From positions 18,528-82,527 of the IMG/VR virus record IMGVR_UViG_3300048893_000079: 64,000 nucleotides of DNA. One strand, given 5' to 3'. The notes under the pieces are model-generated. The model was not told where the DNA came from. It did no database searches and saw only the letters and a list, made by a program, of their open reading frames with translations. Below are positions 2,889 through 16,996 of the stretch, in pieces. The translations under genes were made by a program, and so were the position numbers. Numbering within the stretch: the first letter of the stretch is position 1; every line of letters begins with the position of its first letter. Origin of the DNA: a virus. Lineage: Duplodnaviria > Caudoviricetes.

Positions 2889-3264
2889 CGCGATCAAAGC
2901 AGTCTTCCCGAACGCGGCTGATCCCGGTGTTCTGTTCTGCTACGATGGCACGATCTACAATCCGAGCGGCGGCTACATCCCGCCACAACTGATCGCGCAC
3001 GAGGAAGTCCACGAGCGTCAGCAGGCGGTGATCGGCCCGGTGAAGTGGTGGGACTATTACATTGCGAATCCAGCGTGGCGCTTCAACGAAGAACTCGAAG
3101 CGCATATCGTCGAGTATCACGACTTCATCAAGCGTCAGAAGAGCCGCCAGATGCGCCGAGATTATCTCGATGCCATTGCGCGTCGCTTGTCCGGCCCGTT
3201 GTACGGGAGCACGAGCACTTTCGGTGAGGCTAGACTTTTGATAGAGCGTGGCCGAAAGGCTTGA
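2854..3264 (+). CDS. Putative zinc metallopeptidase-like protein
   Basis: AHEEVHERQQ (HExxH) followed by FNEELEAH; GGGAG SD. Confidence 0.6.
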   Translation: MLIVDSNPPNFNAIKAVFPNAADPGVLFCYDGTIYNPSGGYIPPQLIAHEEVHERQQAVIGPVKWWDYYIANPAWRFNEELEAHIVEYHDFIKRQKSRQMRRDYLDAIARRLSGPLYGSTSTFGEARLLIERGRKA

Positions 3265-3517
3265 CCGGCACACCGGCTGTGAAGTTCAGCCGTGACGTGA
3301 CCCCATTCGGAGATTTCTCTCCCGGCTCCAACGTGCGAAGGAACGCGACGAGCACGATGTTGTGGCCGATGGTTTTGATCGCGATGCTGTCGCCGACTTC
3401 CGGCCACTTATCGCTCTTTTCGATTGGCATAGACCCTTCGAACGTACCGCTGTTGCGATACGCTTTCTGAAAATTCATCACGCATTCGAGCGTGGCGACG
3501 AGGTTGTGCCGTTTCAT
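3230..3517 (-). CDS. Hypothetical protein, lone minus-strand gene divergent from the tRNA operon
   Basis: Codon usage (ATC/GTC/CTC/AAC) fits the genome better than the + strand ORF 3261..3470. Confidence 0.5.
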   Translation of the reverse strand: MKRHNLVATLECVMNFQKAYRNSGTFEGSMPIEKSDKWPEVGDSIAIKTIGHNIVLVAFLRTLEPGEKSPNGVTSRLNFTAGVPVKPFGHALSKV

Positions 3518-3540
3518 GTCCAAAGTCTAACACGGTCGGG

Positions 3541-3569
3541 TTGACGACCAAAGCCGTCTCCCCCATGAT
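3541..3569 (+). promoter_or_regulatory. Promoter of the ncRNA-tRNA operon
   Basis: TTGACG-N17-CATGAT; predicted start G3576 coincides with the first base of a 12-bp closing stem. Confidence 0.6.
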
Positions 3570-3575
3570 GACGGC

Positions 3576-3654
3576 GGTGGTTCCCTGTAGGCGTTACCCC
3601 GACCCTCCTCCGCTGACGCCAGCGCCCGAAATGGCTCAAAGCGGGGAACCGCCA
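3576..3654 (+). ncRNA. Three-way-junction small RNA with a C-rich anti-SD loop, ending ...GCCA
   Basis: GGTGGTTCCCTG/CGGGGAACCGCC closing stem; GGCGTTA/TGACGCC hairpin with loop CCCCGACCCTCCTCCGC; small GCC/GGC hairpin. Confidence 0.55.
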
Positions 3655-3658
3655 CTAT

Positions 3659-3739
3659 TGCGGAGTAGAGCAGCGGGAAGCGTAGCTCGTCGGTTTCATA
3701 CGCCGAAGGTCGGTGGTTCGAGTCCATCCTCCGCAACCA
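3659..3739 (+). tRNA. tRNA-Met(CAT), initiator-like scaffold
   Basis: Full cloverleaf: TGCGGAG/CTCCGCA, GAGC/GCTC, TCGGT-TTCATAC-GCCGA, GGTGG-TTCGAGT-CCATC, encoded CCA. Confidence 0.92.
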
Positions 3740-3743
3740 TTTT

Positions 3744-3819
3744 TGGAGCGTAGCTCAGTTGGTAGAGCGCCGGATTGTTAATCCGATGGTCGGTGGTTCG
3801 AACCCATCCGCTTCAGCCA
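3744..3819 (+). tRNA. tRNA-Asn(GTT)
   Basis: 76-nt cloverleaf: TGGAGCG/CGCTTCA, anticodon loop TTGTTAA, G73, encoded CCA. Confidence 0.95.
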
Positions 3820-3897
3820 TTTTCTCCGACTTTGGAAAATCGAAACCACATGCTATCTTCAAGGGGATCGAAAGCCCCCTGCCAGGAGAGTCACCCC

Positions 3898-4254
3898 ATG
3901 TCCCTTTTCGTCGCCGCTCTGATCGTCGTCGCCGTTGTCGTCGCCGGTCTCTACTTTTTCGTCCCCGCATTTCACACCGCTCTGCTCAACGCGTTCAATG
4001 TCGCGCGTGACAGCCTGAGCAAGATCGTCACCGATGCCGAAGCCGTTGTCGCGCGCCTCGAAGCGCACGCGAAGGCACAGAACGTCGCTGCCGCAACACA
4101 CACCGCTGCTGCCACCACGCACACCGCTCTCGCGTCGCAAGCAGCCGCTAATGCAACGACCGCCGTTTCCGCCGCCGCTTCGCTGAAGAGCGCAGTCGCG
4201 TCGATTCCGGCAGTTGCTCCGGCCGTCGCTCCGGCGCCGACCGTCAAGTCGTAA
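3898..4254 (+). CDS. Ala-rich membrane-anchored hypothetical protein
   Basis: AGGAG SD; N-terminal hydrophobic helix. Confidence 0.7.
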   Translation: MSLFVAALIVVAVVVAGLYFFVPAFHTALLNAFNVARDSLSKIVTDAEAVVARLEAHAKAQNVAAATHTAAATTHTALASQAAANATTAVSAAASLKSAVASIPAVAPAVAPAPTVKS

Positions 4255-4351
4255 GTCGTTACACCGGTCCCGACCGTCGCTCGTTTGTAACAAGGGAAGC
4301 GAGCATCGCGAAGGACCGGTCCCCATACCGGTCCAGGCCGAGGCAAACCCG

Positions 4352-4501
4352 ATGACGAAGAACATCAAGATCAGTCACGTCGTCATCGGGTTCTTCGTCG
4401 GCGTTATCGTCGGAATGTTTTTCGCTGGTCATCTGTGGATCGCCTACGCGTCTAAAAACGCGGAGTGGATCGTGCAGCACCAGACGGAGGAAGATCAATG
4501 A
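4352..4501 (+). CDS. Small membrane protein
   Basis: ATG 4352; one TM helix; coupled to the next gene. Confidence 0.55.
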   Translation: MTKNIKISHVVIGFFVGVIVGMFFAGHLWIAYASKNAEWIVQHQTEEDQ

Positions 4502-9409: not shown

Positions 9410-9952
9410 ATGACGGTGATTGTGTGGGACGGCAAAGTTCTCGCTGCCGATAGCCGGTGTTCTGACACGCATCTCATGCATGTCACCAACGTCCGCAAAA
9501 TCTTCAAGCTGAAGAACGGCGCGCTGCTCGGCACGGCGGGCGACAACGATGATCGCGATGTCCGCGCCATCCTCGCCACCGCTTCGCCGCGCAAGATGCC
9601 GCCGCGCGATAAGCTCGCTGCCACGAAGACGGCGTTCTCCGGGATCATGATTTTTCCGAAAGGCCACGTGTTCGTCATCGACATCGACTGGGAAGAGCAC
9701 GAAAGTGAAGGAGAGTGGCGCGCGAGCGTGGATGCGATCAGCGAGAAGTTCGTCGCGGTCGGCCATGGTTCGCAATTCGCGTACGGCGCGCTCGAACACG
9801 GCGCCTCGGCGGCCGAAGCAGTTCGCGCCGCATGCAAGCGCGATTTGACTTGTGCGCTGCCGGTTCAGCAAGGGTCTTTCGAAGTGCCGCCTGCGCCTGA
9901 GATTCCGCCGGTCCCGTTGGCGAAGCCCAAGCCCAAGCGCGCGAAGAAGTGA
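9410..9952 (+). CDS. HslV/proteasome-beta-like Ntn hydrolase
   Basis: N-terminal M-T nucleophile, LAADS, RKIF, LLGTAG, AVGHG..FAYGAL, EAVRAA. Confidence 0.75.
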   Translation: MTVIVWDGKVLAADSRCSDTHLMHVTNVRKIFKLKNGALLGTAGDNDDRDVRAILATASPRKMPPRDKLAATKTAFSGIMIFPKGHVFVIDIDWEEHESEGEWRASVDAISEKFVAVGHGSQFAYGALEHGASAAEAVRAACKRDLTCALPVQQGSFEVPPAPEIPPVPLAKPKPKRAKK

Positions 9953-11775: not shown

Positions 11776-11804
11776 TTGACAGGAGTTTTCCTTGCCCCCA
11801 TCAT
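11776..11804 (+). promoter_or_regulatory. MCP promoter within a long inverted repeat
   Basis: TTGACA-N17-CATCAT inside GATCATG..GGGGGC / GCCCCC..CATGATC (11755-11808). Confidence 0.6.
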
Positions 11805-15280: not shown

Positions 15281-15459
15281 TGCCTCTGCCAGCCTCCAAT
15301 TCCACGAAAGCAGGAAAGCGCGCAAACGCCAAATTCGTCATGCACGAATTCAAGGGCGGCCATCTGCATTCGGGCAAGAAGAACGGCCCGGTCGTGAAGG
15401 ACCGCAAGCAAGCCATCGCGATTATGCTGTCCGAAACCGGTCAGTCCAAGCAGAGTTGA
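15280..15459 (+). CDS. 59-aa basic protein (DUF6496-like), below the ORF-track cutoff
   Basis: Hand translation MPLPASNSTKAGKRANAKFVMHEFKGGHLHSGKKNGPVVKDRKQAIAIMLSETGQSKQS; TAATG coupling. Confidence 0.75.
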   Translation: MPLPASNSTKAGKRANAKFVMHEFKGGHLHSGKKNGPVVKDRKQAIAIMLSETGQSKQS

Positions 15460-15484
15460 CAAGCGTTCCCCGTAGCCCCACAAT
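15456..15484 (+). promoter_or_regulatory. Promoter for neck/tail genes
   Basis: TTGACA-N17-CACAAT. Confidence 0.6.
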
Positions 15485-15511: not shown

Positions 15512-15874
15512 ATGGCCCAGTTTACATTCCTCGTCTCCGTCTCGCAGCCCCAGTTGGGCGCGCGCCTGATTAACGGTGTTGTCGCTTGCCTCGTGAACGC
15601 GTCCAGCGCCTCGAATGCAAAGACCAACGCCGCTCTCGCATGCAACGCCGCGTTCGCAAATGAGTTCCCGCAGACGGATGACACGGAGAAGGAATTCTTC
15701 GACGCCGGTTCGGTGCTCTTCCCCGCGACCTATTTCGATACGGCGGTTGCCGTGTCTGCCTCTGCCGGTGTTCCGGCGTCGGGCGATGGTTCGGTCGCAG
15801 GCGACGCCTATGTGATCCCTGAGCCTGCCGTCGCGCCGGTTTATGTCGATCACACGAAGTACACTCCGGTCTAA
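15512..15874 (+). CDS. Putative virion structural protein
   Basis: AGGAG SD; structural module position. Confidence 0.7.
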   Translation: MAQFTFLVSVSQPQLGARLINGVVACLVNASSASNAKTNAALACNAAFANEFPQTDDTEKEFFDAGSVLFPATYFDTAVAVSASAGVPASGDGSVAGDAYVIPEPAVAPVYVDHTKYTPV

Positions 15875-15967: not shown

Positions 15968-16996
15968 ATGGTCGCACCCGCATTCATGATCGTCGAAGAC
16001 GGAACGGCCCGCGTTGATTCGAACGCCTATTGGGACTTGGACTCGATCACCGCGTACCTCACCAACAAGGGCGTTCTCGATTGGGAGAACTACACTGCGA
16101 ACGAGCAGGCCCGCGCCACGATCTCCGCTACCATGTATATCGAGAAGCGTTTCCGCAATCGCTTCCGTGGTCTTCGTCAGCAAGTCGAGCAGGCGCTCGG
16201 CTGGCCGCGCATCGGTGCGTTTGACAACGATAGCTATCTCCTGACCGGCGTGCCGTTTCAAGTCCGTTGGGCTTGCGCAGAATATGCGATCCGCGCCGCG
16301 CGCCTCGGTGTGTTGGCGCCGGACCCGATCCGCTCGGTCCCCACGCAAGACCTCTCGATCTCGCAGCCGGGTCTCACGGCGGGCACGGCCACGTTTACGC
16401 CTTCGGCAAATCTCGCAGACGGAGACGTTCTTGCTATCGGCACTCGTAAGTACACGATGCAGACCGTGCTCACGTTGACGGACGGTCATGTGCTGCTCGG
16501 AGGCACGGTTGCCGAGACGCTGCTCAATATCGCAAACGCGATCAACGATAACGGCGGCGGCACGCCGGACACCGACTATCACGTCACGCAGTCCGATCCT
16601 AATGTGACTGCTGTTGCCACTCTGACGACGCTTGTCGTCTCGGACGTGAACGCGAATGCGAATAGCATCGCGGTGGCCTACGCGCCGTTCGGCTCTTCGC
16701 ATGGCACTTGGGGTGCAGGCGTCACGAGCCTGTCCGGCTATTCGAACAATCCTCCGACGCTCGATCTCGTGGTCGGTCCGGTTCGCAGCAAGACCGAGAA
16801 GGTCGGCCCGCTCGAAGAGCAGACCACGTACGACGGATATTCGGCGCTCGCGATCCGCGACAAGGACACTTCGCGTTCAGTGCAGTCGAACATCGTGAAT
16901 GATTTCTATCTGCCGGAATATCCTGAAGCCGATCTCTGGCTTGAGATGGTCCTGCGCAACGCTTCTTCGGGAACACGCATGGTTCGAGGGTCGTAA
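15968..16996 (+). CDS. Head-tail adaptor (DnaT-like ssDNA-binding family) with an inserted shared domain
   Basis: EDGT....NAY, QALGWPR, VPFQVRWACAEYA ... KTEKVGPLE...PEYPEAD; insert at about aa 137-257. Confidence 0.75.
   Translation: MVAPAFMIVEDGTARVDSNAYWDLDSITAYLTNKGVLDWENYTANEQARATISATMYIEKRFRNRFRGLRQQVEQALGWPRIGAFDNDSYLLTGVPFQVRWACAEYAIRAARLGVLAPDPIRSVPTQDLSISQPGLTAGTATFTPSANLADGDVLAIGTRKYTMQTVLTLTDGHVLLGGTVAETLLNIANAINDNGGGTPDTDYHVTQSDPNVTAVATLTTLVVSDVNANANSIAVAYAPFGSSHGTWGAGVTSLSGYSNNPPTLDLVVGPVRSKTEKVGPLEEQTTYDGYSALAIRDKDTSRSVQSNIVNDFYLPEYPEADLWLEMVLRNASSGTRMVRGS

Follow-up and report, generated by a model that had tools for sequence, protein, structure and literature searches.

An 83-nt RNA leader with a compact predicted fold and an exposed C-rich loop lies between a promoter and the only two tRNA genes of a soil phage, and the explanation that we tentatively prefer, with rather less than even confidence, is that RNase P would release it as a stable RNA that acts in trans through this loop. 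The promoter-like site, the predicted fold and the C-rich loop are confirmed as genuine features of the sequence. The source is an 82.5-kb IMG/VR virus record rated complete, with overlapping ends like those of a circularly permuted assembly. Positions refer to the window, the 64,000-nucleotide part of this record that was analysed, except where genome positions are given.

The terminase, portal and major head protein are of the YuA-like siphovirus type and share about 50% identity with their counterparts in cultured Pseudomonas phages; the nearest cultured phages are the YuA-like Pseudomonas phages (about 50% identity in portal and terminase), in which we found no similar DNA except for the tRNAs. 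Eight CtrA-type sites (TTAACCAT/ATGGTTAA) are clustered within approximately 340 bp at genome positions 16398–16740, about 1.8 kb before the start of the window, and the rest of the genome has just one further such site. An eight-site array fits an alphaproteobacterial host, and the host is probably alphaproteobacterial. The element itself occupies a 380-nt gap with a leftward gene on one side and a rightward late block of packaging and head genes on the other; the operon order is promoter, leader, tRNA-Met, tRNA-Asn, placing these at the head of the late block. The features are:

3230–3517, leftward: gene for protein P0001.
3541–3569, plus strand: promoter-like site, TTGACG, 17-nt spacer, CATGAT; sole match within 3000–4500.
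3576–3658, plus strand: candidate RNA, an 83-nt tRNA-precursor 5' leader, from the predicted start to the last base before tRNA-Met.
3576–3588, plus strand: 5' strand of the closing stem, GGUGGUUCCCUGU, including the acceptor-like GGUUCCC at 3579–3585 (MFE and centroid structures).
3590–3620, plus strand: predicted 7-bp hairpin (3590–3596/3614–3620) with the 17-nt loop CCCCGACCCUCCUCCGC at 3597–3613.
3622–3637, plus strand: predicted small hairpin, GCC/GGC with a CGAAAU loop, without the C-rich motif.
3641–3653, plus strand: predicted 3' strand of the closing stem, GCGGGGAACCGCC; GGGAACC at 3644–3650, G at 3651, and CCA at 3652–3654.
3659–3739, plus strand: tRNA-Met (CAU), 81 nt (ARAGORN; Rfam RF00005, 54.1 bits).
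3744–3819, plus strand: tRNA-Asn (GUU), 4 nt after tRNA-Met (ARAGORN; Rfam RF00005, 65.9 bits).
From 3898, rightward: small membrane protein, first gene of the late block.
5465, rightward: terminase, late block.
7610, rightward: portal, late block.
11776–11804 and 15456–15484, plus strand: the two other sites of the promoter class TTGACR-N17-CAYNAT to which 3541–3569 belongs.
11881, rightward: major head protein, late block.

The tRNA-Met is unusual, with a 13-nt D-loop, a U1–A72 pair and an encoded CCA. Beyond tRNA-Asn, a 78-nt spacer (3820–3897) extends to the first late open reading frame and contains a weak promoter-like sequence, TTGGAA-N16-TATCTT, and a GGGG/CCCC hairpin just 5' of an AGGAGAG ribosome-binding site. 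We found no intrinsic terminator 3' of the tRNAs, and because the spacer lacks a U tract, transcription probably reads through from the tRNAs into the late genes.

The promoter described in the initial annotation, with a predicted start at G3576 located 7 nt after the -10 element, is present, and it is the only sigma-70-like site between 3000 and 4500 (-35-like TTGACG at 3541–3546, -10-like CATGAT at 3564–3569). Sites matching TTGACR-N17-CAYNAT occur three times in the window, compared with 0.12 expected by chance, and all three are on the plus (late) strand and share a C-run 5' of the -10 element (CCCCCATGAT, CCCCCATCAT and CCCCACAAT). The site at 11776 precedes the major head gene and that at 15456 precedes a gene starting at 15513, while the site at 3541 precedes the tRNAs. 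This looks like a class of late promoters. The motif is not conserved in the distant relatives. Since the same promoter type recurs three times, the promoter at 3541 is credible and transcription is predicted to start near G3576. No terminator was found between this promoter and the tRNAs, and the leader has no U tract; with the only plausible promoter on its 5' side and the first tRNA on its 3' side, it should therefore be transcribed as part of the tRNA precursor, forming its 5' leader. Both earlier proposals on expression, co-transcription ahead of the tRNAs and release by RNase P, draw support from this anatomy, and cleavage at 3658/3659 would free the leader. The size of the candidate RNA needs correction: tRNA-Met starts at 3659, so that the RNase P product would be 3576–3658, or 83 nt and not about 79. 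The cleavage site is preceded by A at -2 and U at -1, and U is the base preferred by RNase P at -1.

The leader is predicted to fold as a compact Y with a three-way junction, with a minimum free energy of -37.4 kcal/mol for 3576–3658 and -38.4 kcal/mol for 3573–3658. A closing stem running from G3576 to 3653 had been described as 12 bp; its ends stand, but it consists of 13 pairs (3576–3588/3641–3653), three of them G-U. The rest of the leader is enclosed by this stem, which stops 5 nt short of the first base of tRNA-Met. Within it, the small hairpin has three pairs (3624–3626/3633–3635), and the 7-bp hairpin that was said to expose a C-rich loop is recovered, with the core CCUCCUCC at 3604–3611 of the 17-nt loop. 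This region has a predicted mean unpaired probability of 0.85 (computed on 3603–3610), which is the same for the leader alone and for the leader with tRNA-Met. Adding tRNA-Met to the sequence leaves the fold as it is; the fold and the exposed motif are lost only in a 322-nt global fold (3576–3897) that also misfolds the tRNAs. The 76-nt unit noted previously at 3579–3654, with its GGUUCCC/GGGAACC stem followed by G and CCA, exists in the sequence, but the predicted fold pairs G3651, C3652 and C3653 with U3578, G3577 and G3576, so that the GCCA end would not be free.

Compared with dinucleotide shuffles, the leader has a z-score of -2.61, and 4 of 200 shuffled sequences fold as well. When 7,852 windows of 83 nt were sampled from the genome, every 21 nt on both strands, 1.4% folded equally well or better. 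The sequence CCTCCTCC has five copies in the 82.5-kb genome, and only the one in the leader is in a clean non-coding hairpin loop. The fold is moderately beyond chance, although these statistics are suggestive rather than compelling because the element was chosen for looking structured.

Several other readings of the element were considered and rejected. The leader is unlikely to be protein-coding, as the only frames open across it lack a ribosome-binding site and run into both the -10 box and the tRNA; there is also no record in the protein collection of spurious open reading frames across it. A ribosome-binding site on the minus strand (GGAGGAGGG) has no start codon within reach. An attP site or the 3' end of a host tRNA was discarded because there is no T-loop and no match in the sampled genomes, and an intrinsic terminator because there is no U tract.

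The leader belongs to no curated RNA family. An Rfam search (cmscan) of 3450–3900 against all 4227 families at E ≤ 10, a check that the initial annotation had proposed with the cuckoo/alpha-r14 and tRNA models in mind, gave no match on 3541–3658, and the matches in this region are the two tRNAs and some noise elsewhere. Sequences with C-rich anti-Shine-Dalgarno loops are established among the small RNAs of Alphaproteobacteria, and the cuckoo/alpha-r14/CcsR family is characterised by two to four adjacent hairpins, each with CCUCCUCCC in its loop, joined by single strands and with no multiloops (PMC4615179). Its definition permits variants of the motif and sets limits of 24–50 nt for the hairpin and 9–27 nt for the loop (PMC4615179). 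The leader resembles cuckoo/alpha-r14/CcsR (RSs0680) and NfeR1 in having the C-rich, anti-Shine-Dalgarno-like CCUCCUCC in a hairpin loop, its motif hairpin (31 nt with a 17-nt loop) is inside those limits, and its host, like theirs, is probably alphaproteobacterial. With G as the base after CCUCCUCC, the loop agrees with CCUCCUCCC at eight of nine bases, the last C being replaced. However, the leader has a single motif hairpin (3590–3620), the loop of its second hairpin being CGAAAU, and the motif hairpin is inside a three-way junction closed by the 13-bp helix; it is also phage-encoded and without a terminator, with a 3' end that would be set by RNase P. The suggested membership in cuckoo/alpha-r14/CcsR therefore does not hold, given the lack of an Rfam match, the single motif hairpin and its location in a multiloop, although by analogy the leader could have a similar mode of action.

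The proposal of a tRNA mimic fares no better beyond the acceptor-like stem. We agree that the 76-nt unit has no D-arm, T-arm or T-loop motif, and threading it onto a canonical tRNA gives two of five T-stem pairs. The tRNA covariance model (RF00005) has no match on the leader at E ≤ 10, and ARAGORN reports nothing there in its standard, relaxed (-ps, -ps80), intron or armless metazoan-mitochondrial modes. With both methods blind to the leader, the acceptor-like end is all that speaks for mimicry.

The sole relative carrying the element is a sister contig, IMGVR_UViG_3300020125_000226, which is 99.0% identical over 14.7 kb and has an identical leader; at this level of overall identity the identical leader is uninformative on conservation. 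The sister has a G-to-T change at the equivalent of position 3668, converting GAGC to TAGC in the D-stem of tRNA-Met; the ARAGORN call is lost, and this tRNA may thus be decaying or tolerant of the mismatch. An exact search of IMG/VR with the 17-nt loop returned the sister contig and three chance matches only, and P0001 and the portal as single queries in IMG/VR returned only the sister contig. Terminase homologues at 65–87% identity exist (P0003–P0012). Searches of IMG/VR, JGI metagenomes and GTDB genomes with a terminase alignment identified 240 loci, all of which, the sister aside, are at or below about 63% identity. Of these 240 loci, 99 were scanned with a covariance model built from the element, without a match, and the model likewise found nothing in two further phage loci carrying a similar tRNA-Met. 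BLAST searches with the leader against 401 alphaproteobacterial genomes gave short chance matches only, one of which is a C-rich terminator arm; a 19-nt chance match to the leader is in the alphaproteobacterial genome G242. Two tRNA-Met-based patterns searched in IMG/VR returned one chance match, in a coding region, and two unrelated phages with a similar tRNA-Met and without such a leader.

Two further observations were made in these searches. In an unrelated GC-rich phage (IMGVR_UViG_3300035183_001487, 5807–6012), a tRNA-Met with the same anticodon arm is located behind a similar promoter, TTGACG...CCCATTT, and directly 3' of it is a 16-bp hairpin with a C-rich inner loop (CACCCUCCCCCCGC), a U-rich tail and a z-score of -3.3; the similarity of this hairpin to the leader is weak (p = 0.02). 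Several terminase homologues (P0021, P0032, P0050, P0071, P0072 and P0080) are 820–880 aa long compared to about 525, and some of these long forms have LAGLIDADG/Hint-type Pfam domains (PF14528, PF05204). Their length and domains suggest that there are inteins in the terminases of related phages.

The reading we tentatively prefer is that cleavage by RNase P at 3658/3659 would yield an RNA of about 83 nt with a compact Y shape, matured in the manner of a tRNA-precursor spacer and probably assembled from the debris of tRNA genes. Its fully paired 5' end and 5-nt 3' overhang would resist 5'-end-dependent RNase E and 3' exonucleases, so that the RNA would accumulate; this expectation of stability draws on established properties of RNase E, RppH and 3' exonucleases. 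The exposed CCUCCUCC loop could then pair in trans with G-rich, Shine-Dalgarno-like sequences (GGAGG) in host or phage mRNAs and lower their translation. This logic is akin to that of the anti-Shine-Dalgarno loops of the alphaproteobacterial cuckoo, CcsR and NfeR1 RNAs, although the biogenesis would differ in its tRNA-precursor route and its origin in tRNA debris. In favour we count the promoter, which is of a recurring class, is the sole one upstream of the tRNAs and has no terminator intervening, and the fold, which is more stable than shuffles (z = -2.6) and than 98.6% of sampled genome windows. The bases before the RNase P site, the probable alphaproteobacterial host and the precedent of T4 small RNAs also speak for it. 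Counting against action in trans, the motif may have been inherited from the acceptor strand of a tRNA. A more specific version, in which a phage RNA made from tRNA debris and matured by RNase P uses CCUCCUCC to mimic the anti-Shine-Dalgarno of 16S rRNA and so block ribosome-binding sites, we consider improbable.

The target search in the phage genome also counts against action in trans. No target of the loop is outstanding, the best duplex (-24.8 kcal/mol) being away from any ribosome-binding site. Matches of 8–9 nt to the loop are located at several ribosome-binding sites, such as those before the genes at 9410, 14038 and 37460 on the minus strand, but their number is about that of a rough chance estimate for GGAGG-type sites. 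An indiscriminate blocker of Shine-Dalgarno sequences is disfavoured, as it would also hit the genes of the phage itself, where GGAGG-type sites are in use.

Nearly as likely as a trans-acting leader RNA is a functionless relic. Here the leader would be debris of a longer, decayed tRNA array, transcribed by virtue of its position, cut by RNase P and then degraded or inert, and its anti-Shine-Dalgarno appearance would derive from a former tRNA acceptor strand. Relatives with terminases of about 60% identity have 18–26 tRNAs in the same place and orientation upstream of the terminase (L009, 92–3307; L010, 1–2973; and L147, with 18 tRNAs), mostly separated by 4-nt spacers, and since there are just two tRNAs here, arrays in this group appear to grow and shrink. 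The 76-nt unit at 3579–3654, with its GCCA end, is followed by a 4-nt spacer that equals both the tRNA-Met/tRNA-Asn spacing and the usual spacers of L009, and looks like the occupant of a tRNA slot in an array. Moreover, an alignment of the leader's 5' half to the neighbouring tRNA-Met covers the 3' third of that tRNA and agrees at 21 of 22 bases (p = 0.004 with dinucleotide shuffles), pairing leader CGGTGGTT, a 17-nt insert and CGA--CCCTCCTCCGC with CGGTGGTTCGAGTCCATCCTCCGC of the tRNA, and the aligned stretch of tRNA-Met contains CCUCC. If this similarity is real, the CCUCC of the leader would have been inherited from a T-stem and acceptor strand. The similarity requires the 17-nt gap, however, and is not significant after correction over the 111 tRNAs compared (p = 0.4); no tRNA remnant in the leader is recognised by the tRNA covariance model or by ARAGORN; and debris is not expected to give a 13-bp helix that begins precisely at the predicted start and closes 5 nt short of the RNase P site. 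Overall the sequence leans slightly towards an origin in tRNA debris. Such an origin says nothing about present use, and is compatible with later use as a regulator.

A purely cis-acting leader, with a fold that works only within the precursor, is a less probable explanation. The structure might present a single-stranded 5-nt junction to RNase P, influence the order or rate of tRNA-Met maturation through pairing of the loop with the tRNA's 5' acceptor strand, or shield the primary transcript at its 5' end. Consistent with this, the helix stops 5 nt short of a cleavage site that has A-2 and U-1, and CUCCGC in the loop (3608–3613) is identical to the 3' acceptor strand of tRNA-Met, and is therefore complementary to the 5' acceptor strand GCGGAG at 3660–3665; the long-transcript fold (3576–3897) also shows alternative pairings of the loop and the 5' strand. 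Yet in the ensemble of leader plus tRNA-Met the loop is unpaired and the cloverleaf region folds separately. In addition, tRNA leaders in bacteria and phages mostly need no structure of this kind, a plain promoter followed by a short leader is common among the relatives, and the two remaining promoters of this class (11776 and 15456) have unrelated leaders.

Other promoter-proximal roles are very unlikely. The put RNAs of HK022 modify RNA polymerase for read-through, and the element, which directly follows a late-class promoter where the late block opens and precedes tRNAs with no intrinsic terminator 3', could be imagined either as a polymerase-modifying RNA for read-through of the long late operon or as a DNA inverted repeat bound by a protein. 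But the other two promoters of the class have no similar element, the shape is a three-way junction as opposed to two tandem stem-loops, there is no Rfam family match, and the repeat arms are 52 nt apart, unlike an operator. Least likely, if only slightly less so, is a tRNA-like decoy, generated by RNase P, possibly cutting again at 3578/3579, and by trimming of the 3' end, that would engage the CCA-adding enzyme, a synthetase, EF-Tu or an anticodon or acceptor nuclease of host defence: the acceptor-like stem with its G and CCA, the length of exactly 76 nt, which fits the spacing of the array, and the neighbouring unusual tRNA-Met are in its favour, but the G and CC of its end are paired, the D-arm, T-arm and T-loop motif are missing with two of five T-stem pairs on threading, and neither Rfam (E ≤ 10) nor ARAGORN, even in armless mitochondrial mode, calls a tRNA.

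Returning to the released, trans-acting leader RNA, few phage-encoded trans-acting small RNAs are known to us. By analogy, the closest precedents appear to be RNAC and RNAD of phage T4, together with spacer-derived regulators of host tRNA operons. RNAC and RNAD have tRNA-like paired ends and are processed together with tRNAs. Small RNAs from the tRNA region of T4 are produced late in infection and have no known role (PMC3014915; PMC9697503), and were without an assigned function for decades (PMC3014915). Like them, the leader would be a small non-tRNA RNA encoded with a phage tRNA cluster and presumably transcribed with it, although RNAC and RNAD are within or after the cluster whereas the leader is 5' of it, and the phage lineage and host differ. 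The E. coli 3'ETS-leuZ, the 3' external spacer of a host tRNA operon, sponges small RNAs via Hfq. In common with 3'ETS-leuZ, the leader is a spacer of a polycistronic tRNA transcript that could base-pair once tRNA-processing enzymes release it; it differs in being a phage 5' leader with a different motif, and in that our search of the phage genome turned up no partner that stands out.

If the leader is a relic, it documents the decay of a tRNA array in a phage group that has from 0 to 26 tRNAs at this locus. If instead it is released and acts in trans, it would be a phage-encoded anti-Shine-Dalgarno riboregulator with tRNA-type biogenesis, and such a mimic could contribute to host shut-off or to the timing of phage gene expression. 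The anti-Shine-Dalgarno loop principle of alphaproteobacterial small RNAs would then extend to the phages of these bacteria, and the leader would provide a testable case of a phage gaining a regulator "for free" from tRNA processing.
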